This document shows, piece after piece, positions 1-61,340 of a stretch of DNA of 64,000 bases. The notes below the pieces were generated by a model. That model was not told the origin of the DNA and made no database searches. It saw nothing but the letters and a program-made list of their open reading frames with translations. The translations under genes were made by a program, and so were the position numbers. Each line of letters begins with the position of its first letter. The stretch's first letter is position 1. This stretch comes from Escherichia coli (GTDB lineage Bacteria > Pseudomonadota > Gammaproteobacteria > Enterobacterales > Enterobacteriaceae), in assembly GCF_003790525.1 (NCBI RefSeq), contig NZ_CP033635.1; one strand, given 5' to 3'.

Positions 1-797
1 ACCGAAACTCCGTGGTGTAGTGCGTTTGTTGGTGCGGTGTTCCCTGCGCCAGCGGGGATAAACCGTTGGTATTAACGGGAATGTAGTCACTCCAGGAGTG
101 TTCCCTGCGCCAGCGGGGATAAACCGGCGATCGTATTTTCCGCTACGTCGCTCAAATGGTGTTCCCTGCGCCAGCGGGGATAAACCGTCGTTGATGGTGT
201 GATGAGTGTACAAAAAAAAGTGTTCCCTGCGCCAGCGGGGATAAACCGACGACTGAATCCGGCGAGGCTATCAACTGGCCGTGTTCCCTGCGCCAGCGGG
301 GATAAACCGCCGCACACGTCGAGCTGGTGGGGATTAATGCTGTGTTCCCTGCGCCAGCGGGGATAAACCGCAGTAAACGTTCGCGCGTTCTCGCGCTCAC
401 GAGTGTTCCCTGCGCCAGCGGGGATAAACCCTCTGTGTATTCGCTACCAGCCAGCACCGGTACGTGTTCCCTGCGCCAGCGGGGATAAACCGCAGGGTAA
501 CTGGCTGCTCCTCAACCATTCCGCGTGTTCCCCGCGCCAGCGGGGATAAACCGGGGTTTTAGCGACCGGACCAGAGTACGCAACAGTGTTCCCCGCGCCA
601 GCGGGGATAAACCGTTGCGCCTTAAGTTCCTTAACTTCCTCTGTATGTGTTCCCCGCGCCAGCGGGGATAAACCGGGAGTGATGAATTGGAAGTAACGGA
701 TAACCGCGTGTTCCCTGCGCCAGCGGGGATAAACCGGACGCACTGGATGCGATGATGGATATCACTTAGAGTTCCCCCCGCCCCTGCGGTAGAACTC
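1..797 (+). CRISPR. Type I-E CRISPR array, iap-proximal (distal) end; 13 repeats in window including a degenerate terminal repeat; truncated by window start
   Basis: 29-bp repeat GTGTTCCC(T/C)GCGCCAGCGGGGATAAACCG at a strict 61-bp period starting at 37,98,159,220,281,342,403,464,525,586,647,708; 32-bp unique spacers; degenerate repeat GAGTTCCCCCCGCCCCTGCGGTAGAACTC at 769-797; positions 1-36 are the end of a further repeat plus one spacer. Confidence 0.97.
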
Positions 798-11998: not shown

Positions 11999-12439
11999 CT
12001 ATTTGCTCATCATCTTGCGCACCAGCTGCATAAACAGCTCCTGCTCTTCTGCACTCAAACGCCCCAAAAATTCCTCATCCACACTGTCACCAATCGGTAT
12101 CGCCGCAGCAAGTACCTTTTCTCCTTCGGCAGTCAGCCAGACAAAGCGTCGCCGCTTATCAGCAGAGTCATGTTCTCGTCTGACTAAGCCACGATTTTCC
12201 ATTCGTGCCAACATTTCTGCCAGCGTTGCTTTGGTGCTGACGGCTGCTTCTATCAGTGCCACCTGTTCGATACCAGGTTTATCAGCAATGGCGCGCATCA
12301 CCGCGTACTGTGGTTTGGTCAGATCAGGTAACTCGTGCTGCCAGCGAGCCGTGTGCTGCTGAAAAAGCTGTCGTAACTGATGGAACGCTTTATTTCGTAA
12401 CGCCATGTAAACTCCGGGCAAACTATCTGCCGCTATCAT
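11999..12439 (-). CDS. MarR/SlyA-family transcriptional regulator
   Basis: 146-aa ORF with winged-helix region typical of the MarR family; divergent from the decarboxylase operon. Confidence 0.85.
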   Translation of the reverse strand: MIAADSLPGVYMALRNKAFHQLRQLFQQHTARWQHELPDLTKPQYAVMRAIADKPGIEQVALIEAAVSTKATLAEMLARMENRGLVRREHDSADKRRRFVWLTAEGEKVLAAAIPIGDSVDEEFLGRLSAEEQELFMQLVRKMMSK

Positions 12440-12521
12440 AGCGGTTTTTCAGTGACGAAGAAGATGTTGTTACTTTTCAGCGCTTGCCGCGATGAAAACA
12501 GAGGCGTATTTTAATAATAAC

Positions 12522-12535
12522 GTTCGTATACGAAC
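12522..12535. promoter_or_regulatory. Perfect 14-bp palindrome GTTCGTATACGAAC, candidate operator for the adjacent MarR-family regulator
   Basis: Read directly; sits about 18 bp upstream of the ATG at 12553 inside the divergent intergenic region. Confidence 0.4.
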
Positions 12536-12552
12536 AATTTAGAGAGTAAGCA

Positions 12553-13146
12553 ATGAAACTGATCGTCGGGATGACAGGGGCTACCGGTGCGCCTCTTGGG
12601 GTGGCATTACTGCAAGCGCTGCGGGAGATGCCGAATGTCGAGACTCATCTGGTGATGTCGAAGTGGGCGAGAACCACCATTGAACTGGAAACGCCTTACA
12701 GCGCTCGCGATGTTGCTGCCCTCGCAGACTTCAGCCATAACCCGGCGGATCAGGCGGCGACCATCTCCTCAGGTTCCTTTCGTACCGACGGCATGATCGT
12801 TATTCCGTGCAGTATGAAAACGCTCGCCGGTATCCGTGCCGGTTACGCCGATGGCCTGGTGGGGCGCGCGGCGGACGTCGTGCTCAAAGAAGGCCGCAAA
12901 CTGGTGCTGGTGCCGCGTGAAATGCCGCTTAGCACAATCCATCTCGAAAATATGCTCGCACTTTCGCGCATGGGCGTGGCGATGGTGCCGCCGATGCCTG
13001 CCTTTTATAACCATCCCGAAACGGTAGATGACATTGTCCACCACGTGGTAGCCCGCGTGCTGGATCAATTTGGCCTCGAACATCCTCACGCCAGGCGCTG
13101 GCAAGGATTGCCGCAGGCCCGGAATTTTTCTCAGGAGAATGAATAA
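12553..13146 (+). CDS. UbiX/Pad1-family flavin prenyltransferase, B subunit of a non-oxidative hydroxyarylic acid decarboxylase system
   Basis: 197-aa ORF, N-terminus MKLIVGMTGATGA typical of the UbiX/PAD1 flavoprotein fold; translationally coupled (ATAATGG) to the UbiD-like gene; ecdB/kpdB/bsdB-type. Confidence 0.88.
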   Translation: MKLIVGMTGATGAPLGVALLQALREMPNVETHLVMSKWARTTIELETPYSARDVAALADFSHNPADQAATISSGSFRTDGMIVIPCSMKTLAGIRAGYADGLVGRAADVVLKEGRKLVLVPREMPLSTIHLENMLALSRMGVAMVPPMPAFYNHPETVDDIVHHVVARVLDQFGLEHPHARRWQGLPQARNFSQENE

Positions 13147-14573
13147 TGGCATTTGATGATTTACGCAGCTTTTTACAGGCGCTCGACGACCATGGGCAAT
13201 TGCTGAAAATCAGCGAAGAGGTGAACGCAGAACCGGATCTGGCAGCCGCAGCCAACGCCACCGGGCGTATCGGCGACGGCGCGCCCGCGCTGTGGTTTGA
13301 CAATATTCGCGGCTTTACCGATGCCCGCGTGGCGATGAACACCATCGGTTCCTGGCAGAACCACGCGATTTCCCTCGGCCTGCCGCCAAATACCCCGGTT
13401 AAAAAACAGATCGATGAGTTTATCCGCCGCTGGGACAACTTCCCGATAGCCCCGGAACGCCGAGCCAATCCAGCCTGGGCGCAGAACACCGTCGATGGCG
13501 AAAAGATTAACCTGTTCGATATCCTGCCGCTGTTTCGTTTAAACGACGGTGATGGCGGTTTCTATCTCGACAAAGCGTGCGTGGTTTCCCGCGATCCGCT
13601 CGACCCGGATAACTTCGGCAAGCAGAACGTCGGTATCTACCGCATGGAAGTGAAGGGCAAACGTAAGCTCGGCCTGCAACCGGTGCCGATGCACGATATC
13701 GCGCTGCATCTGCATAAAGCGGAAGAGCGCGGTGAAGATCTGCCGATTGCCATCACCCTCGGTAACGATCCGATCATCACCCTGATGGGGGCCACGCCGC
13801 TGAAATATGATCAGTCCGAGTACGAAATGGCGGGCGCGCTGCGCGAAAGTCCGTACCCGATTGCCACCGCCCCACTGACCGGTTTTGATGTACCCTGGGG
13901 CTCGGAAGTGATCCTCGAAGGGGTTATCGAAAGTCGTAAACGTGAAATCGAAGGGCCGTTCGGTGAGTTTACCGGGCACTACTCCGGCGGGCGCAACATG
14001 ACCGTGGTGCGCATCGATAACGTCTCTTATCGCAGCAAACCCATTTTTGAATCGCTCTATCTCGGGATGCCGTGGACGGAAATCGACTACCTGATGGGGC
14101 CAGCCACCTGCGTGCCGCTGTATCAGCAACTGAAAGCCGAGTTCCCGGAAGTGCAGGCGGTAAACGCCATGTACACCCACGGCCTGCTGGCGATTATCTC
14201 CACCAAAAAACGCTACGGTGGCTTTGCCCGCGCGGTGGGCCTCCGTGCGATGACCACGCCACACGGTCTGGGCTATGTGAAGATGGTGATTATGGTCGAT
14301 GAAGACGTTGATCCGTTCAACCTGCCGCAGGTGATGTGGGCGCTCTCTTCGAAAGTGAACCCGGCAGGGGATTTGGTGCAGTTGCCGAATATGTCCGTGC
14401 TGGAACTCGACCCTGGCTCAAGTCCGGCGGGGATCACCGACAAGCTGATTATCGACGCCACCACGCCTGTCGCCCCGGACAACCGTGGTCACTACAGTCA
14501 GCCGGTGGTGGATTTACCGGAAACCAAAGCCTGGGCTGAAAAACTGACCGCTATGCTGGCCGCACGTCAATAA
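13146..14573 (+). CDS. UbiD-family decarboxylase, C subunit of a hydroxyarylic acid decarboxylase
   Basis: 475-aa ORF of UbiD size and sequence character; in operon between UbiX-like and small-subunit genes; ecdC/kpdC/bsdC-type. Confidence 0.88.
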   Translation: MAFDDLRSFLQALDDHGQLLKISEEVNAEPDLAAAANATGRIGDGAPALWFDNIRGFTDARVAMNTIGSWQNHAISLGLPPNTPVKKQIDEFIRRWDNFPIAPERRANPAWAQNTVDGEKINLFDILPLFRLNDGDGGFYLDKACVVSRDPLDPDNFGKQNVGIYRMEVKGKRKLGLQPVPMHDIALHLHKAEERGEDLPIAITLGNDPIITLMGATPLKYDQSEYEMAGALRESPYPIATAPLTGFDVPWGSEVILEGVIESRKREIEGPFGEFTGHYSGGRNMTVVRIDNVSYRSKPIFESLYLGMPWTEIDYLMGPATCVPLYQQLKAEFPEVQAVNAMYTHGLLAIISTKKRYGGFARAVGLRAMTTPHGLGYVKMVIMVDEDVDPFNLPQVMWALSSKVNPAGDLVQLPNMSVLELDPGSSPAGITDKLIIDATTPVAPDNRGHYSQPVVDLPETKAWAEKLTAMLAARQ

Positions 14574-14583
14574 GGAGAACAAG

Positions 14584-14820
14584 ATGATTTGTCCACGTTG
14601 TGCTGATGAACAGATTGAAGTGATGGCGAAATCGCCGGTAAAAGATGTCTGGACGGTCTACCAGTGCCAGCATTGCCTCTATACCTGGCGCGATACCGAA
14701 CCGCTGCGCCGCACCAGCCGCGAACATTATCCCGAAGCGTTCCGCATGACGCAGAAAGATATTGATGACGCGCCGATGGTGCCGAGCATCCCGCCGCTGC
14801 TGGCGGAAGGTAAGTGTTAA
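14584..14820 (+). CDS. Small zinc-ribbon subunit (D) of the hydroxyarylic acid decarboxylase
   Basis: 78-aa ORF with CPRC...CQHC motif, 10 nt after the UbiD-like gene. Confidence 0.8.
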   Translation: MICPRCADEQIEVMAKSPVKDVWTVYQCQHCLYTWRDTEPLRRTSREHYPEAFRMTQKDIDDAPMVPSIPPLLAEGKC

Positions 14821-14821
14821 T

Positions 14822-18471: not shown

Positions 18472-18816
18472 ATGTCCGGCAAGCGTATCTCTCGTGAAAA
18501 ACTGACGATTAAAAAAATGATCGATCTTTATCAAGCGAAATGCCCGCAGGCGTCAGCGGAGCCGGAGCATTACGACGCGCTGTTTGCCTACGCGCAAAAG
18601 CGGCTGGATAAATGTGTGTTCGGCGAAGAGAAACCAGCCTGTAAGCAGTGTCCGGTGCACTGTTACCAGCCAGCAAAGCGTGAAGAGATGAAACAGATTA
18701 TGCGTTGGGCCGGGCCGCGAATGCTGTGGCGTCATCCGATCTTAACCGTGCGTCATCTCATCGATGACAAGCGTCCGGTGCCGGAGTTGCCAGAAAAATA
18801 TCGTCCAAAGAAATAA
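18472..18816 (+). CDS. ygbA: Uncharacterised protein YgbA (nitrosative-stress regulon)
   Basis: 114-aa cysteine-rich ORF, divergent from mutS as in E. coli. Confidence 0.85.
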   Translation: MSGKRISREKLTIKKMIDLYQAKCPQASAEPEHYDALFAYAQKRLDKCVFGEEKPACKQCPVHCYQPAKREEMKQIMRWAGPRMLWRHPILTVRHLIDDKRPVPELPEKYRPKK

Positions 18817-18854
18817 ATCTGCCGGAGAGCCATACTCTCCGGCAAATAAGGCGT

Positions 18855-19283
18855 TTACGCTTTGGTGGCAATCAGGATGGCTGATGCTTTGATCAATGCA
18901 ATAACGCGCGAGCCAGTGGTGAGTTTCATTTCATCCTGACTTTCATTTGTTACCACTGCCACAATTTCAAAACCCGCATCCGTTTTGATATGGACAGTGG
19001 CGTTCACTGCGCCTTCGGTGATTGTCGACACGCTGCCAGCAAACTGGTTGCGAGCAGAGAATTTCAGTCCACAGTCTTCCGTTGCCAGTGTTACCCACGG
19101 GGCTTTAATCAGGGCAATCGCTTCTTTCCCTTTTGCCAGACCAAGAGCCTGCTGGCTGCTGTGTGTAACAATTGCCACCAGCTTTGCACCACCTGCCAGC
19201 GTCAGTTCTACTTCATCATTCACAGCGCCCATTGCTACTGCGCTAACTGTTCCGGTTAATTGATTTCTTGCTGAAACTGCCAT
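18855..19283 (-). CDS. Tandem Mop/TOBE-domain (di-Mop) molybdate-binding protein
   Basis: Two internal ~65-aa repeats each beginning SARNQ.. and ending ..ALIKA; likely start ATG at 19283 preceded by AAGGAGG; longest ORF extends to 19322, 5 nt after the fhlA stop. Confidence 0.8.
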   Translation of the reverse strand: MAVSARNQLTGTVSAVAMGAVNDEVELTLAGGAKLVAIVTHSSQQALGLAKGKEAIALIKAPWVTLATEDCGLKFSARNQFAGSVSTITEGAVNATVHIKTDAGFEIVAVVTNESQDEMKLTTGSRVIALIKASAILIATKA

Positions 19284-19327
19284 ACTGCCTCCTTTCATTG
19301 AATGTTGATCGAGTATAACCACATCTG

Positions 19328-21406
19328 TTAAATCAATGCCGATTTATCAATTCCCAGTCGCTTCATCCGTGACAGCAGAGTCGTGCGTTTCAGCCCCAGA
19401 CGTTGCGCAGCGCCTTTAGGCCCGGCAACCACGCCGTTTGTTTCTTTCAGCACGCGAACAATCAACTGATATTCATCTTCGCCCTCCTGGGCGACAACCG
19501 TTGCGGCAGGCGGCGTTTCAGGTTCTGGTAAAGCAATATCTGGCAATGACAGCTGCAGCACGTTGCCGCGTGTTAGCAATACCGCGCGCTCGATGACGTT
19601 TTCCAGCTCACGCACGTTGCCCGGCCATTCCATGTTGCTCAGGATGCGCAGCGTCTCGGCAGGAATGCTGTCGATATTGCGCCCCAGACGACGGGCAATT
19701 TTGAAGGTAAAGGCTTTCGCCAGCAGCGGAATATCTTCCGGACGCTCGCGTAGTGGCGGCAGGTGGATCGGGAATACGTTCAGGCGGTAATAGAGATCAC
19801 TACGGAACTCTCGGTCGGCGACCATTTTTTTCAGATCGCGGTTAGTCGCGGCAATTAAACGTACGTCCGTCTGAATGATTTTGTTGCTGCCGAGGCGTTC
19901 AAACTCCTGTTCCTGTAATACACGCAGCAACTTCGGCTGTAACTCCAGCGGCATATCGCCCACTTCGTCGAGGAACAGGGAGCTTTTATCCGCCAGTTCA
20001 AAACGACCAATGCGCTGGGCGCTGGCACCGGTAAAAGCCCCACGCTCATGACCAAACAGATCGCTCTCCAGCAATCCGGCAGGCATCGCCGCGCAGTTCA
20101 TTTTTACCATGCGGCGATTATTACGCCCACTGAGATTATGGATAGCACGGGCAATCAGCTCTTTACCCGTGCCAGTTTCACCGAGGATCAGCACGGTACT
20201 GTCACTTTGCGCCACCATTTCAACTTGTTTAAGCACGCTGTACATGGCTTCGCTGCGGCCAATAATCTCGCCAAATTCACTATCAACATTGTTGAGCTGC
20301 TCGGTCAGGGCGAGGTTTTCATCAACCAGCCGTTCTTTCAGACGATGGATTTCCTGATAGGCGAGGGCGTTATCGACAGCGATTGCCACACGTTCGGCAA
20401 TCTGGCGCAGTAAATTCAGATTGGTAGTGGTAAACACTTTCTCTTCGCATTGCGCCAGTTTCAGCACGCCCAGCATGGTGTCGCCAGACATCAGCGGTAA
20501 CAGGCACAAGGTTTGAATCTGGTTGCCCCAGGTGTCGAACAACATGCGTTCATAGGGGGCTAAATCGTCCCGCTCGTGGAGATTAATCAACAGCATCTCT
20601 TTACTTTTGAAGACGCGTTCGGTGAGGGTTCCGGCTTCATCGACTTCGCTCTGTTCGTGGGCGGGATGCTGTTTATCAAGATAGTGAGTGGAGTAGATGT
20701 TGAGTTTGTTTTTACGGTGGCTGCGTAAGACGATGCTGATATCGTCAATGTCGAAGTAGTAATGGATTTCTTTGGCGACTTCGCTGACCAGTTCGTCCAT
20801 ATCCAGGCGGGAAAGCACCGCGTTGGTAATGGCAACCAGGATGCGGAAGTTATCGCGCTCCCGGCATAACAACTCATAGTCGACATTGTTAACGACGCGG
20901 CTCTGGATTTGTTCGGTGACGACCGAAACGATCTGCGTAAATGTTTGCAGACGATTGAACTCTTTTTCGCTCCAGGGGCGATCGTCATAACGAATAAATT
21001 CACAGCCACCAAAAATATGCCCTTCCGCCGCCAGTGGCATCAGGCAATAGTGACCAAATTTGGGGTATAGTCCACCTGCGGCCAGCTGCGGCCAGGTTTC
21101 ACAAAATTCTTCGTAACTGCAATGCAGCGTATCAGGGCGCGACAAAATGCTGCGTACCGGACCGTGTGCCAGAACAGTTTCGTCTTCATATTTAATGGGG
21201 GTGTCTTTTTCACGCGACGCGTAATAAGACGCACGTTGAGTCTGCGCTTGCCACAACACAATAGCCGCGTTGTCGGCGAGCGCAGAACGCTTTACCAGTT
21301 GCGAAAGAGCCTCACACAGCGAGGCCAGATCGGGCTGCTGCAATAGTGTCCGAGTGATGTCGAACAACCCTTGTTGTCCGAGATCACTCATCGGTGTATA
21401 TGACAT
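19328..21406 (-). CDS. fhlA: Formate hydrogenlyase transcriptional activator (sigma-54 enhancer-binding protein)
   Basis: Start trimmed to MSYTPMSDLGQQ (692 aa); AAA+ sigma-54 activator motifs [15 protein letters not shown]-terminal HTH. Confidence 0.95.
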   Translation of the reverse strand: MSYTPMSDLGQQGLFDITRTLLQQPDLASLCEALSQLVKRSALADNAAIVLWQAQTQRASYYASREKDTPIKYEDETVLAHGPVRSILSRPDTLHCSYEEFCETWPQLAAGGLYPKFGHYCLMPLAAEGHIFGGCEFIRYDDRPWSEKEFNRLQTFTQIVSVVTEQIQSRVVNNVDYELLCRERDNFRILVAITNAVLSRLDMDELVSEVAKEIHYYFDIDDISIVLRSHRKNKLNIYSTHYLDKQHPAHEQSEVDEAGTLTERVFKSKEMLLINLHERDDLAPYERMLFDTWGNQIQTLCLLPLMSGDTMLGVLKLAQCEEKVFTTTNLNLLRQIAERVAIAVDNALAYQEIHRLKERLVDENLALTEQLNNVDSEFGEIIGRSEAMYSVLKQVEMVAQSDSTVLILGETGTGKELIARAIHNLSGRNNRRMVKMNCAAMPAGLLESDLFGHERGAFTGASAQRIGRFELADKSSLFLDEVGDMPLELQPKLLRVLQEQEFERLGSNKIIQTDVRLIAATNRDLKKMVADREFRSDLYYRLNVFPIHLPPLRERPEDIPLLAKAFTFKIARRLGRNIDSIPAETLRILSNMEWPGNVRELENVIERAVLLTRGNVLQLSLPDIALPEPETPPAATVVAQEGEDEYQLIVRVLKETNGVVAGPKGAAQRLGLKRTTLLSRMKRLGIDKSALI

Positions 21407-21479
21407 TTTGTTCTTCCAGGAAAGCACCGCAAAGCGGTGCAAAAGGTCATTGACTAACTATAGGAGATTTAGAATTTTA

Positions 21480-22490
21480 TTAGCATATACGCGGAAGCGG
21501 TTCGGCGTGTGGTAAATCGAGGGTTCGTTTCACGCCATACAGACCGGCAAGACGAACACCTTTACGTTCCACCACTTCACCAATCAGCGCCGCGTCTTTC
21601 CCCAGTGGATGGGAATGTAACGCTGCCAGCACTTGCTCTGCCGCGTTGCGTTCAACGGCGATCACCAGTTTGCCTTCGTTGGCAAAGTTAAGGGCGTCCA
21701 GTCCCAGCAGCTCGCAAACGCCACGCACAGCAGGTTTAACCGGCAGTGCCGCTTCTGAAAGTTCAATACCACAACCGCAGGCTGCCGCGAACTCATGTAC
21801 CACCGCGTTTACACCACCACGGGTGGCATCACGCAGCGCTTTCACGCCGGGAATGTCACGCAGCGTCTGAATAAGCGGCGTTAGTACCGCACAGTCGCTG
21901 ACCAGTTCGCCATCCAGCCCCAGCTGCTCACGCAGGTTAAGGATAGTCGCCCCGTGGTCGCCGAGAGTTCCACTCACCAGCAGAACATCGCCTGCGGTTA
22001 GCGTTTGTGCGCCCCAGTGAATATTCGCCGGAATTGCGCCCATGCCAGCGGTGTTGATAAACAGTTTATCTGCCGCGCCGCGCTGCACCACTTTAGTGTC
22101 GCCAGTAACGATGGCAATGCCTGCCGCGCGGGCGGTTTCTGCCATGCTGGTCACTACGGCTTTCAGTGTCTCCATCGGCAATCCTTCTTCGAGGATAAAG
22201 CCACAGGAGAGATAGCGCGGAATAGCGCCACTGACCGCAACGTCATTCGCGGTGCCGCAAATCGCCAGCTTGCCGATATTACCGCCAGGGAAGAACAGCG
22301 GGTCAATAACGTAACTGTCGGTGGAGAACGCCAGACGGTCGCCTTCCGCTACCAGCTGCGCCAGATCAAGACGTGCCTGATCTTCCTGCTCTGCCAGCCA
22401 CGGGTTGGCAAAGGCTTCCATAAACAGGCTGTTGATTAATTGCTGCATCGCCTGGCCGCCGCTACCGTGGGCGAGTTGGATATTATTCAC
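21480..22490 (-). CDS. hypE: Hydrogenase maturation protein HypE
   Basis: 336-aa ORF, N-terminus MNNIQLAHGSGG; recognised HypE. Confidence 0.95.
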   Translation of the reverse strand: MNNIQLAHGSGGQAMQQLINSLFMEAFANPWLAEQEDQARLDLAQLVAEGDRLAFSTDSYVIDPLFFPGGNIGKLAICGTANDVAVSGAIPRYLSCGFILEEGLPMETLKAVVTSMAETARAAGIAIVTGDTKVVQRGAADKLFINTAGMGAIPANIHWGAQTLTAGDVLLVSGTLGDHGATILNLREQLGLDGELVSDCAVLTPLIQTLRDIPGVKALRDATRGGVNAVVHEFAAACGCGIELSEAALPVKPAVRGVCELLGLDALNFANEGKLVIAVERNAAEQVLAALHSHPLGKDAALIGEVVERKGVRLAGLYGVKRTLDLPHAEPLPRIC

Positions 22491-23608
22491 GCTTCACTCT
22501 CCTGCTGACGATACTGATACCACGCGGCGCACGCTCCTTCGGAGGAAACCATCAGCGCACCAAACGCGGTTTGAGGATTACAGGTGTTACCAAACAGCGG
22601 GCATTGATGCGGCTTACATTTGCCCGTTAATACTTCGCCACAACGTGCGCGCGGGTCATCGCAGACCTGCTGCGGTGCCGGGCGGAAATGCGCTTCGGCA
22701 TCGAATCGTTGATAATCCGGCGTCAGGTGTACACCAGAAGATTCAATCACGCCTAAGCCGCGCCATTCGCTGTCGCCGTTGACACAGAACACATCGGCAA
22801 TCGCCTGTTGCGCCAGCAGGTTACCGGCATCCGGCACCACCCGACGATACTGATTCTCTACCTTGCTGTGGGCCGCTATTTTCTGCTCCACCAGCATGAC
22901 CACGCCTTGCAGTAGATCAAGCGGTTCGAAACCAGCCACCACCAGCGGACGATGAAAATCGCTGGCGATAAAATTATAGGCATCAGTGCCGATCACCATA
23001 CTGACGTGGCCGGGCGCGAGGAACGCGTCGATACCGTTATCCGGCTGTTCCAGCAAACTGCGCAGTGTTGGGATGAGCGTAATGTGCTGGCAGAAGAAGT
23101 AAAAATTCTGCACATCGCGGGCTTTTGCCTGTTGCAGAGTGATGGCGGTGGTCGGCATGGTGGTTTCAAAACCCAAGCCGAAGAACACCACTTTGCGGGT
23201 TGGATTCTCCTGCGCCAGTTTCAACGCATCCATCGGCGAGTAAACGATGCGCACATCGGCACCGCGTGCCTTTGCCTGTAACAGCGAACCCTGTTTCCCT
23301 GGTACGCGCATGGCGTCGCCAAAGGTACAGAAGATGACTTCCGGATGGCTGGCAATCTCCACGCAGGTGTCGATTCTACCCATCGGCAGTACACACACCG
23401 GGCAACCGGGACCGTGGATAAACTCAACGTTTTCCGGCAGCAACTGGTCGAGGCCGAATTTAAAAATGGCGTGGGTATGACCGCCACACACTTCCATAAT
23501 CCGCAGAGGGCGTTCGGCGGTGTAAGAGAGATGTGAAGCACGTTCGCGCAGATGCTCAATTAACTGCATCACCTGTTCCGGCGCGCGATATTCATCAACA
23601 AAACGCAT
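22487..23608 (-). CDS. hypD: Hydrogenase maturation protein HypD
   Basis: 373-aa ORF with CGGxH and CPVC motifs; overlaps hypE and hypC. Confidence 0.95.
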   Translation of the reverse strand: MRFVDEYRAPEQVMQLIEHLRERASHLSYTAERPLRIMEVCGGHTHAIFKFGLDQLLPENVEFIHGPGCPVCVLPMGRIDTCVEIASHPEVIFCTFGDAMRVPGKQGSLLQAKARGADVRIVYSPMDALKLAQENPTRKVVFFGLGFETTMPTTAITLQQAKARDVQNFYFFCQHITLIPTLRSLLEQPDNGIDAFLAPGHVSMVIGTDAYNFIASDFHRPLVVAGFEPLDLLQGVVMLVEQKIAAHSKVENQYRRVVPDAGNLLAQQAIADVFCVNGDSEWRGLGVIESSGVHLTPDYQRFDAEAHFRPAPQQVCDDPRARCGEVLTGKCKPHQCPLFGNTCNPQTAFGALMVSSEGACAAWYQYRQQESEA

Positions 23609-23880
23609 TATTTTTCCTCGCCATACAACAGCGCACCGACATCCGGCTCAACGTCAAACATGTTTTGTAAGGCGTCGAGAGTGTCGCGCGCTTCGGCTTC
23701 ATTAATTACGCTCATGGCAAAGCCAACGTGAACCAGTACCCACTGGCCTACGCGTGGCTGACCGTTTTCATCGCAGCTGCCGACTAACGTTAAATCGACA
23801 TCGCGCTGAATGCCGCAGACGTCGACTTTCGCCTGGTTGCCGTCAATGGTGCGGATCTGGCCGGGAACGCCTATGCACAT
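23608..23880 (-). CDS. hypC: Hydrogenase maturation chaperone HypC
   Basis: Start trimmed to [14 protein letters not shown] (90 aa), the invariant HypC N-terminus. Confidence 0.92.
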
Positions 23881-24743
23881 CGCTGTGTCTCCAGCCAGTT
23901 CAGCCACTGGTCCATCCCTTCGCCGCTGGTGGCGGAAATAAGGATGATTTCAATTTCTGGATTGACTTCGCGGGCGCAGGCGATGCACTTCTCAACGTCA
24001 AAGTTGAGATACGGCAGCAGGTCAACTTTGTTGAGCAGCATCAGTGAGGCGGCGGCAAACATATGTGGATATTTCAGCGGTTTGTCTTCACCTTCGGTAA
24101 CGGAAAGCACCGCCACTTTGTGTTTTTCACCGAGATCGAAGCTCGCCGGACATACGAGGTTGCCAACGTTTTCGATAAACAGAATACCGTTATCGTCCAG
24201 TGGCAGGCGCGGCGCGGCGTCGGCGATCATCTGTGCGTCAAGATGGCAACCTTTACCGGTATTCACCTGAATCGCTGGTGTGCCGGTAGCACGAATGCGT
24301 GCGGCATCGTTCACGGTTTGCTGATCGCCTTCAATAACCGCGCACGGAACGCTGTCTTTCAGGCGCATTAAGGTTTCCGTCAGCAGGGTGGTTTTACCGG
24401 AACCAGGGCTGGAAACCAGGTTGAGCACCAGTTGCTTGCGGGCAGCAAAGCGCGCGCGGTTGCGTTCAGCCAGACGGTTGTTTTTGTCCAGCACGTCAAT
24501 TTCGACTTCCAGCATCCGACGCTGGCTCATGCCCGGCGCGTGAGTGCCCGCTTCGCCATGACCGTAATGCAGGTCGCCTTCTTCAGTCTGGCTGGGGGTA
24601 AATTCAGGCGCTTTAATGCCGGTGATTTTCATCTTCGGGCGTGCCGCCGGGGCAAATGGCGCGCTACGAAACGCGGAATGAGGGTTATGTTCATCACCCT
24701 CAATATAGAGGTTGCCTTCACCGCAACCGCATGTTGTACACAT
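23871..24743 (-). CDS. hypB: Hydrogenase nickel-incorporation GTPase HypB
   Basis: 290-aa ORF, N-terminal [10 protein letters not shown] metal-binding motif, P-loop GSGKTT. Confidence 0.95.
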
Positions 24744-24746
24744 CGC

Positions 24747-25097
24747 TCACTCCTGGTCTATTTCTATCCGCCGAATCTGTAAACCGTCGTCTGCCACAAT
24801 CTGTAGCATGTCACCATGACACTGTGGACAGCGGCGGACGCGCTGGGTCAGTAGCGTCACATACTGTTGGCATGTTTCACACCAGCATTCGGCCTCTTGT
24901 TCTTCGAGGTGCAGTTTACAACCTTCCGCCATGCTGCCGCGGCAAACCAGATCAAAACAAAAGGCAAGAGAGCTGGTTTCGACACAAGAAAATGCGCCAA
25001 TTTTGAGCCAGACCCCAGTTACGCGTTTTGCGCCGTGTTTTGCGGCCTGCTGTTCGATCAATTCCAGTGCCCGTTGGCAGAGGGTTATTTCGTGCAT
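24747..25097 (-). CDS. hypA: Hydrogenase nickel-incorporation protein HypA
   Basis: Start trimmed to MHEITLCQ (116 aa); zinc-finger CxxC...CxxC. Confidence 0.93.
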   Translation of the reverse strand: MHEITLCQRALELIEQQAAKHGAKRVTGVWLKIGAFSCVETSSLAFCFDLVCRGSMAEGCKLHLEEQEAECWCETCQQYVTLLTQRVRRCPQCHGDMLQIVADDGLQIRRIEIDQE

Positions 25098-57766: not shown

Positions 57767-57859
57767 GGTGAGGTGGCCGAGAGGCTGAAGGCGCTCCCCT
57801 GCTAAGGGAGTATGCGGTCAAAAGCTGCATCCGGGGTTCGAATCCCCGCCTCACCGCCA
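57767..57859 (+). tRNA. serV: tRNA-Ser (anticodon GCU)
   Basis: 93-nt sequence GGTGAGGTGGCCGAGAGGCTGAAGGCGCTCCCCTGCTAAGGGAG...CGCCTCACCGCCA with long variable arm and encoded CCA. Confidence 0.95.
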
Positions 57860-57862
57860 TTT

Positions 57863-57939
57863 GCATCCGTAGCTCAGCTGGATAGAGTACTCGGCTACGA
57901 ACCGAGCGGTCGGAGGTTCGAATCCTCCCGGATGCACCA
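57863..57939 (+). tRNA. tRNA-Arg (anticodon ACG), copy 1
   Basis: 77-nt GCATCCGTAGCTCAGCTGGATAGAGTACTCGGCTACGAACCGAGCGGTCGGAGGTTCGAATCCTCCCGGATGCACCA. Confidence 0.95.
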
Positions 57940-58003
57940 TCTCTTACTTGATACGGCTTTAGTAGCGGTATCAAAAAATCTGCAGTAAAGTAAGTTTCCC
58001 GAT

Positions 58004-58080
58004 GCATCCGTAGCTCAGCTGGATAGAGTACTCGGCTACGAACCGAGCGGTCGGAGGTTCGAATCCTCCCGGATGCACCA
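58004..58080 (+). tRNA. tRNA-Arg (anticodon ACG), copy 2
   Basis: Identical 77-nt sequence. Confidence 0.95.
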
Positions 58081-58142
58081 TCTCTTACTTGATATAGCTT
58101 TAGTGGCGGTATCAATATCAGCAGTAAAATAAATTTCCCGAT

Positions 58143-58219
58143 GCATCCGTAGCTCAGCTGGATAGAGTACTCGGCTACGAACCGAGCGGTCGGAGGTTCG
58201 AATCCTCCCGGATGCACCA
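58143..58219 (+). tRNA. tRNA-Arg (anticodon ACG), copy 3
   Basis: Identical 77-nt sequence. Confidence 0.95.
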
Positions 58220-58282
58220 TCTCTTACTTGATATGGCTTTAGTAGCGGTATCAATATCAGCAATAAAATAAATTTTCCCGAT

Positions 58283-58359
58283 GCATCCGTAGCTCAGCTG
58301 GATAGAGTACTCGGCTACGAACCGAGCGGTCGGAGGTTCGAATCCTCCCGGATGCACCA
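58283..58359 (+). tRNA. tRNA-Arg (anticodon ACG), copy 4
   Basis: Identical 77-nt sequence. Confidence 0.95.
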
Positions 58360-61264: not shown

Positions 61265-61340
61265 AAGAAAAAGGCCACTCGTGAGTGGCCAAAATTTCAT
61301 CTCTGAATTCAGGGATGATGATAACAAATGCGCGTCTTTC
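61265..61340 (-). ncRNA. micA: Small regulatory RNA MicA (SraD)
   Basis: Minus-strand reading GAAAGACGCGCATTTGTTATCATCATCCCTGAATTCAGAGATGAAATTTTGGCCACTCACGAGTGGCCTTTTT matches MicA including its terminator hairpin; divergent from luxS. Confidence 0.92.

Follow-up and report, generated by a model that had tools for sequence, protein, structure and literature searches.

A ModG-like tandem Mop-domain gene at the end of the hyp-fhlA string of Escherichia coli and its deletion in K-12

The genes hypABCDE and fhlA, the latter encoding the formate hydrogenlyase transcriptional activator, form a string in Escherichia coli whose 3′ end differs between strains. In K-12 MG1655 no gene lies between fhlA and the convergent ygbA, and the gap between the two is 36 nt. 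The 64,000-nt stretch of E. coli DNA analysed here (the window; NCBI RefSeq assembly GCF_003790525.1, contig NZ_CP033635.1) carries an additional open reading frame in the same interval, referred to below as mop. This raises the questions of whether mop is a genuine gene, what its product is likely to do, and whether it was gained by some E. coli strains or lost by others. The features of the locus are collected in Table 1.

Table 1. Features of the fhlA-ygbA interval and its neighbours, in window coordinates
Feature	Position	Strand	Description
ygbA	18472-18816	plus	114 aa, convergent with mop; Pfam YgbA_NO, NCBIfam NF007713
Intrinsic terminator hairpin	18817-18847	minus	14 pairs followed by UUUAUUUCUUU; 3′ of mop, overlaps the last ygbA codons
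Segment missing from K-12-type genomes	18851-19324		About 474 bp, spacer and whole mop ORF; from the alignment of the window, K-12 and 536
Maximal ORF	18855-19322	minus	155 aa from GTG; six-frame ORF list
mop/modG-like CDS	18855-19283	minus	142 aa, ATG at 19283, stop TAA at 18855-18857
fhlA-mop spacer	19284-19327	minus	44 nt, no terminator-like hairpin
Shine-Dalgarno AAGGAGG	19288-19294	minus	4 nt upstream of the mop ATG; read from the sequence
fhlA	19328-21406	minus	Formate hydrogenlyase transcriptional activator, annotation of an identical strain; adjoins mop upstream
hypABCDE	21480-25097	minus	From annotation; presumed transcription unit hypABCDE-fhlA-mop

The preliminary description of this DNA had placed an ORF immediately 3′ of fhlA, in the same orientation and within 50 nt of its stop codon, and had taken the whole of the maximal ORF as the gene. 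The placement is right, the gap from the fhlA stop (19328-19330) to the mop ATG being 44 nt, and the ORF is present; its start was set too far upstream, however, and the interval 18855-19322 includes 39 nt of leader, the true CDS being 18855-19283. The ATG at 19283 is assigned as the start because four features agree on it. RefSeq annotates a CDS of 429 nt (WP_000301062.1, 'TOBE domain-containing protein') in an identical strain and in 536, Nissle 1917, and 042. The orthologues begin at the equivalent ATG and are 142 aa long in 47 of the 49 extracted, the two most distant ones having 140 and 143 aa; one further copy (locus L046) is truncated at 113 aa. The methionine encoded by this ATG is the first residue of the alignment with ModG, and the strong AAGGAGG ribosome-binding site that had been claimed is found at the expected place before it. 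The GTG, from which 155 aa would be read, was rejected as a start: no ribosome-binding site precedes it, other genera do not conserve it as a start codon, and the homology to ModG sets in only at the ATG. Among the orthologous loci whose upstream sequences were compared, an (A/T)GGAGG or AAGGAG box is kept before the mop ATG, with weaker exceptions in Klebsiella indica (GCGGAGG) and Edwardsiella (ATAGGAG). The ORF list also extends fhlA, to 19328-21442, beyond its annotated CDS of 19328-21406.

Domain searches uphold the claim that the product carries tandem Mop domains. The protein matches Pfam TOBE twice (E 1.3e-34) and NCBIfam TIGR00638 Mop ('molybdenum-pterin binding domain') twice (E 6e-42), and it consists of two tandem Mop/TOBE domains only, at about residues 1-70 and 73-142 of 142. 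A phmmer search of the PDB returned ModG of Azotobacter vinelandii (1H9J) with an E value of 5e-33, aligning mop residues 1-140 to chain residues 4-143 at 48-49% identity. The di-Mop part of E. coli ModE came next (E 1e-15), followed by the single-domain proteins Mop and Tub. The AlphaFold2 model of the protein, a monomer built on 34 sequences, has a mean pLDDT of 96.5, and its top Foldseek matches are the ModG structures 1H9J, 1H9K, and 1H9M, with TM scores of 0.94-0.95, an rmsd of 1.3-1.4 Å, and 48% identity.

[quoted passage not shown] In Tub, type 1 contacts are made by backbone atoms of residues A20, V21, and N22, which lie on the threefold axis, and type 2 contacts by S4, R6, S40, K60, and A61 where subunits meet (PMC11980592). 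The corresponding positions in the first half of the mop protein are S4, R6, A20, V21, N22, T40, K60, and A61, and those in the second half, at an offset of 72, are S76, R78, A92, V93, N94, T112, K132, and A133. In the alignment of 34 sequences the ligand residues of both halves are invariant or at least 90% conserved. By its architecture, its homology, its di-Mop fold, and the ligand residues in both halves, the mop protein qualifies in silico as a ModG-type molbindin.

The gene is also under purifying selection. Its dN/dS against orthologues is 0.03-0.085, and the window allele, which is of phylogroup F type, differs from the B2 allele of 536 by 8 synonymous and 0 non-synonymous changes. Among the E. 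coli copies, 1889 of 1892 match the query over at least 80% of its length. The TOBE/Mop domain scores and the low dN/dS establish mop as a real gene and not a chance ORF.

The distribution of mop within E. coli was determined from 5426 complete genomes. The gene is carried by 1892 of these, as a single chromosomal copy in every case, and the K-12-type junction, counted with a 65-nt junction-specific probe, is present in 3474 (64%). The 3′ end of fhlA was found in 5398 genomes; from these three counts, mop and the K-12-type junction account for all but about 32 of the genomes that bear fhlA. The identical protein occurs in 536, Nissle 1917, 042, and SMS-3-5, and the SMS-3-5 allele is 100% identical to that of the window. 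The named strains without mop are K-12, a B strain, NCTC86, O157:H7, and O104:H4. We take 536 and Nissle 1917 to belong to phylogroup B2, 042 to D, and SMS-3-5 to F, and the named non-carriers to belong to A, B1, and E.

Alignment of the window with K-12 and 536 defines what is missing from the K-12 type. MG1655 does lack the ORF, as had been supposed, and the missing segment of about 474 bp runs essentially from stop codon to stop codon, with a gap placement that is ambiguous by a few nucleotides. K-12 retains a diverged form of the post-mop terminator hairpin, which stands directly after fhlA. The different junction is also the cause of the longer K-12 YgbA, which has 117 aa vs 114 aa in the window, as seen from the K-12 annotation and the alignment. 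FhlA of the window and FhlA of K-12 are 99% identical in amino acid sequence.

Strain variability at this position could have arisen by gain as well as by loss, and the preliminary description had allowed for both. The variability is borne out by the genome counts, whereas gain is not, and the difference lies in a loss from the K-12 lineage. No sign of mobility of the E. coli gene was found in tblastn searches against plasmids. These returned only diverged paralogues or orthologues of at most 85% identity on Klebsiella and Pantoea plasmids, with uninformative neighbours, and two plasmid matches of at least 99% identity proved to be mislabelled chromosomes of 4.9 Mb.

The evidence for ancestry comes from other species, through their gene order and synonymous divergence. 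One genome of each species was scanned with a search that relies on exact peptide words. This gave 49 mop loci, of which 45 lie in enterobacterial species, and in 35 of these 45 the order is hypE-fhlA-mop, usually with ygbA next. These 35 loci come from Escherichia (including E. albertii and a cryptic-clade Escherichia), Citrobacter, Klebsiella, Raoultella, Kluyvera, Enterobacter, Pluralibacter, Yokenella, Lelliottia, and Kosakonia, and their fhlA-mop spacer measures 36-101 nt, or 36-56 nt in most genera. The same exact-peptide-word search, with one genome per species, returned no mop locus for Salmonella, E. fergusonii, or K. pneumoniae. The gene is kept where fhlA is gone in a Raoultella sp. 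(L015) and an Enterobacter sp. (L031), and it follows hypE directly in Phytobacter and in one Kosakonia. Orthologues also stand alone among unrelated genes in Serratia, Cedecea, and Edwardsiella, on a Pantoea megaplasmid, and on Klebsiella plasmids. Outside the core Enterobacteriaceae (Serratia, Cedecea, Edwardsiella, and betaproteobacteria), the neighbours include genes for an AI-2E transporter, LysE, an aldehyde dehydrogenase, an amino-acid permease, and DHFR/ThyA, and these unrelated genes give no clue to function.

The dS of mop was compared pairwise with that of the flanking genes fhlA, hypE, ygbA, and mutS. Against B2 the value is 0.078 for mop and 0.07-0.15 for the flanking genes, against E. 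albertii it is 0.34 and 0.35-0.61, and against Citrobacter it is 1.1 and 1.0-2.3. The synonymous divergence of mop follows that of its neighbours throughout, and the gene has therefore been passed down vertically along with them. The common gene order and the matching dS make mop ancestral in Enterobacteriaceae, and the K-12 state is therefore the deletion of an ancestral gene. One deletion is the simplest history: on the branch from which K-12, B, O104:H4, and O157:H7 descend, a single event of about 474 bp would have joined the fhlA stop to the post-mop terminator.

The transcription signals around mop are consistent with its position at the end of a longer unit. The terminator scan found none in the 44-nt spacer between fhlA and mop, and the hairpin after mop is a strong terminator, with a 14-bp stem, a U-rich tail, and a folding energy of -28.5 kcal/mol that none of 200 shuffled sequences reached (z -4.7). 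Because the spacer is short and free of terminators, read-through from fhlA is plausible, and mop is probably co-transcribed with it. The spacer also contains a -10-like TATACT at 19312-19317. A TATA(C/A)(T/A/C) box is fixed at -34 from the mop ATG in Escherichia, Citrobacter, Pseudocitrobacter, and Pluralibacter and is absent from Klebsiella/Raoultella. The promoter scan called no sigma-70 promoter in the spacer, where TATACT has no -35 element, and the conserved box may be a candidate for a weak promoter of mop itself. In Lelliottia a hairpin separates fhlA from mop. Some independent transcription of mop is likely because of this hairpin and of the loci that keep mop without fhlA; together, the -10-like box and the Lelliottia hairpin suggest that transcription of mop is at least partly independent. 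K-12 fhlA is served by a weak promoter of its own as well as by the hyp promoters.

Control by ModE was considered for the same region. The consensus for the ModE box reportedly goes back to a paper by Studholme and Pau from 2003. Three forms of the box, TATAT-N7-TAYAT, CGYTATATA-N6-TATATARCG, and RTTATRT-N8-AYATAAY, taken in part from PMC12327845, were scanned in the 250 nt upstream of mop in the window and in 32 other loci. No ModE operator was found in these regions and no match was shared across genera; the best matches in the window have 3/10, 7/18, and 3/14 mismatches. A scan of the whole window against Rfam found no RNA family, such as the Moco riboswitch, near mop. The Rfam matches elsewhere in the window are tRNAs and MicA only.

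The reading that we favour, and consider probable, is that the mop protein is a ModG-type molbindin that serves as an intracellular buffer or store of molybdate, that its gene ends the hyp-fhlA string, and that the gene was lost once by deletion. We infer the oligomeric state, the ligand, the co-transcription, and the role in formate hydrogenlyase function as follows. By analogy with ModG, Mop, and Tub, the protein would assemble as a trimer equivalent to the Mop hexamer, with binding sites for as many as eight oxyanions, either molybdate or tungstate. Two of these would sit on the threefold axis, held by the backbones of A20-V21-N22 and A92-V93-N94, and six would sit at the subunit interfaces, contacted by S4, R6, T40, K60, and A61 and by S76, R78, T112, K132, and A133. 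Through this binding the trimer would act as the intracellular buffer or store. As the presumed last gene of hypABCDE-fhlA-mop, mop would be expressed by read-through from fhlA, possibly with a weak promoter of its own in addition, and its product would be made when formate hydrogenlyase and the molybdo-selenoenzyme FdhH are induced. The protein could then ease the supply of molybdenum for FdhH. The functional link between mop and formate hydrogenlyase is one of synteny only and is not obligate, because K-12-type strains run formate hydrogenlyase without mop, and mop occurs without fhlA and fhlA without mop.

A stronger version of this role holds that the ancestral hyp-fhlA operon ends in a dedicated molybdate handler, which either feeds molybdenum to cofactor synthesis for FdhH or tunes FhlA-dependent transcription. 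This version is unlikely. If it were true, all experimental work on how molybdate controls formate hydrogenlyase would concern a system that lacks one native component, because K-12 and B have deleted mop. Different formate hydrogenlyase behaviour under molybdenum limitation or tungstate stress would then be expected of the mop-bearing strains of B2, D, and F, among them Nissle 1917 and uropathogens.

An alternative that makes mop a regulatory partner is that the protein, once loaded with molybdate, interacts with FhlA or with the hyc/hyp promoter complex and relays the molybdate status, in the manner of a detached sensor domain of ModE. The tight association with fhlA, maintained in about ten genera, is in keeping with this proposal, as is the homology to the molybdate-sensing C-terminal half of ModE (36% identity, TM 0.89-0.90). 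In K-12, moreover, transcription of hyc and fdhF requires molybdate. The mop protein, however, has no DNA-binding domain, its match to the ModE equivalog NF007957 scoring 90.5 bits against a cut-off of 369, and K-12 lacks mop and yet expresses hyc in a molybdate-dependent manner. Orthologues also persist with no fhlA nearby, and FhlA is 99% identical between strains with and without mop, so that no co-adapted change is evident in FhlA. A role as a co-regulator of FhlA is thus unlikely.

Tungstate is the other ligand to be weighed, as sites of the Mop family bind both oxyanions and sequence does not separate a preference of the mop protein for molybdate from one for tungstate. A protein of this kind ('TudG'-type) would sequester tungstate and so protect FdhH or other molybdenum enzymes from mis-metallation, or it would store tungsten. 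A Mop-like protein of a gut anaerobe stores tungstate, and the di-TOBE architecture occurs in more gut species predicted to use tungsten than in species predicted to use molybdenum (PMC11980592). The ligand residues of the mop protein are the same as those of the tungstate-storing Tub (PMC11980592). Against this, no tup genes or genes for tungsten enzymes lie near mop in any locus examined, and among solved structures the nearest relative is ModG, which binds molybdate. The Enterobacteriaceae, moreover, are users of molybdenum with ModABC, and we know of no tungstoenzymes in them. A tungstate-specific function is accordingly improbable.

That mop is a decaying or functionless remnant, simply not yet lost from some E. 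coli lineages, agrees with its being dispensable and absent from 64% of complete E. coli genomes and from some other enterics, but this is very unlikely and is contradicted by the selection data (dN/dS 0.03-0.085; 0 non-synonymous vs 8 synonymous differences between the F-type and B2 alleles), by the constant length of the protein (142 aa in 47 of 49 orthologues, with L046 as one further, truncated copy, and at least 80% coverage in 1889 of 1892 E. coli copies), and by the intact ribosome-binding site and terminator.

A molybdate buffer or store of the ModG type therefore remains the preferred reading of mop, and its significance is best stated within limits. The protein is an uncharacterised member of the well-known and well-understood Mop/ModG family, and homology-based annotation has already labelled it in thousands of genomes, so that no concept is changed. 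Work on molybdate and formate hydrogenlyase has nevertheless never included mop, because the standard laboratory strains K-12 and B have lost this gene from the ancestral 3′ end of the hyp-fhlA string. A full-text search of open-access papers found no publication on mop or on its linkage to fhlA. The gene provides a clean presence/absence marker that separates the four named strains that we take to be B2, D, and F from the named strains that we take to be A, B1, and E. It also offers an easy way of asking whether a cytoplasmic molybdate buffer has any importance for a molybdo-selenoenzyme pathway in E. coli of the gut and the urinary tract.

Comparison with the known TOBE-containing systems supports the assignment to the ModG type. 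Databases label the mop protein 'TOBE domain-containing protein', 'molybdopterin-binding protein', or, on some GenBank copies, 'transporter'. The last of these is a mis-transfer from the TOBE domain of ModC/WtpC. The ATPases ModC and WtpC of ABC transporters, in which an ABC ATPase domain precedes a single TOBE domain, have the TOBE fold in common with the mop protein, but an identity with them was rejected, as the match reaches 26-49 bits against cut-offs of 285-440, with 48 against 285 as one such pair, covers only the last 65 or so profile positions, and includes no ATPase domain.

The C-terminal di-Mop part of E. coli ModE (1H9R/1H9S, 1O7L, and 1B9M) has the same fold as the mop protein, with TM scores of 0.83-0.90 and 33-36% identity. 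The first Mop half of ModE shares the ligand residues S, R, T, S, K, and A with the mop protein, whereas its second half lacks the SARN, T-x-x-S, and KA motifs that are intact in both halves of the mop protein. ModE itself, in which a winged-helix DNA-binding domain at the N-terminus precedes the di-Mop part, was rejected as an identity for mop, since the NF007957 match, at the score given above, is confined to positions 121-261 of the 263-position profile and the mop protein has 142 aa. Because the matches to ModE and to ModC/WtpC extend only to C-terminal TOBE parts and fall below the cut-offs, the mop protein is neither a DNA-binding regulator nor a transporter ATPase.

The single-domain molbindins, namely MopII of C. 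pasteurianum (1GUG), Mop of S. ovata (1FR3), and Tub of E. limosum (9BEB), are proteins of about 70 aa that form hexamers. Each half of the mop protein matches single-domain Mop/Tub with E values of 2e-9 to 3e-5 and an rmsd of 1.0-1.4 Å, with the ligands at the same positions, and the expected function in storage is alike. Tub is the tungstate store of a Firmicute. In contrast to the single domain of Mop/Tub, the mop protein is a covalent tandem that is expected to form a trimer, and an identity with this group was rejected on the two domains in one 142-aa chain.

The closest known system is ModG of A. vinelandii (1H9J, 1H9K, and 1H9M), although the genetic setting and the host differ. The modG gene of A. 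vinelandii lies by the molybdate-transport genes modEABC, is controlled by ModE, and serves nitrogenase and molybdenum homeostasis, whereas mop ends the hyp-fhlA string and has no mod genes nearby. Linkage to mod genes or control by ModE is a feature of A. vinelandii modG that does not strictly define the type, and it is absent at mop, where the neighbours are hyp-fhlA and ygbA. A. vinelandii is a nitrogen fixer, whereas the host of mop is a non-diazotrophic enteric. The proteins themselves correspond closely. ModG is cytoplasmic and consists of two tandem Mop domains only, as does the mop protein, the lengths are 141-145 aa for ModG and 142 aa for mop, and both proteins carry the SARN, GAVN, T-x-x-S, and KA(P/S) motifs in each of their two halves.

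The spacer between fhlA, the formate hydrogenlyase activator gene, and the di-Mop gene mop features a -10-like TATACT box, from which mop may be transcribed as from a weak promoter or one that depends on an activator. A TATACT-type box is located exactly 34 nt upstream of the mop ATG in Escherichia, Citrobacter, Pseudocitrobacter, and Pluralibacter, and the surrounding spacer diverges between genera while the box is kept. In Kluyvera the -10-like box is located 46 nt upstream of the mop ATG. Comparison of the fhlA-mop spacers revealed no such box in Klebsiella and Raoultella, and no -35 partner of the TATACT box was found within the window's spacer. In the window and in the compared RefSeq records, the NCBI pipeline labels the fhlA gene "flhA" and calls its product "formate hydrogenlyase transcriptional activator FlhA". 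The letters are transposed in error: flhA denotes a gene for flagellar export.

The mop gene is also found where fhlA is missing: in Raoultella sp. BIGb0138 (L015), Enterobacter sp. BIGb0383 (L031), and the Phytobacter and Kosakonia sp. S29 loci (L036, L041, and L048). In L015 the final ~50 nt of fhlA remain upstream of mop and adjoin a glycosyl hydrolase gene, and in the Phytobacter and Kosakonia loci hypE is followed directly by mop. Homologous 142-aa di-Mop proteins with ~75–85% identity to the window protein are carried by conjugative IncF Klebsiella plasmids, for example K. pneumoniae pCAV1344-250 (L053), and by a Pantoea megaplasmid, pPAT9B01 of Pantoea sp. At-9b (L054); no molybdenum genes were found near the homologues in these two examples. 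PLSDB additionally lists two 4.9 Mb "plasmid" records with mop, NZ_CP134663.1 and NZ_CP141089.1, which are evidently chromosomes of E. coli that were wrongly entered as plasmids.

Downstream of mop, the YgbA protein is 114 aa long in the window, whereas in K-12 (L001 3454–3807) it is 117 aa long, with ...PHE added, since the 3' end of ygbA was also altered by the K-12-type junction, which is without mop. Alignment of the terminator hairpins, which follow mop in the window and fhlA in K-12, revealed a compensatory pair that distinguishes the stems, GCCGGAGAG/CTCTCCGGC versus GCCGGACAG/CTGTCCGGC. The 44-aa ORF on the other side of ygbA is annotated by RefSeq in an identical strain and in strain 042, but not in K-12. 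Between rpoS and pphB, K-12 features ygbI-ygbN in place of the MarR-family and decarboxylase genes of the window, and strain 042 shares the arrangement of the window with an additional TPR protein. This interval belongs to the well-known polymorphic rpoS-mutS region.

Coordinates of features in the window
Feature	Position	Strand	Location or basis
End of cas2e and type I-E CRISPR array (160-738)	1-738		left edge; annotation
MarR-family regulator and hydroxyarylic acid decarboxylase subunits B, C, D	12000-14821		between rpoS and pphB
44-aa ORF, hypothetical protein WP_000611937.1	18261-18395	+	between mutS and ygbA; RefSeq
ygbA	18472-18816	+	
-10-like TATACT	19312-19317	-	fhlA-mop spacer
fhlA	19328-21406	-	
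Five-tRNA gene cluster	57767-58356	+	Rfam scan
MicA sRNA	61269-61340	-	Rfam, 83.9 bits

In six Raoultella, Klebsiella, and Enterobacter loci (L014, L015, L017, L019, L022, and L033) ygbA is located ~4 kb beyond mop. The first gene in this gap in Raoultella sp. L015 encodes a ZnuA/SitA-type periplasmic binding protein, which is followed by three further ORFs on the same strand. The L015 genes resemble sitABCD, which adjoin fhlA where Salmonella SPI-1 begins or ends, and the mop-ygbA gap thus seems to be an insertion hotspot.
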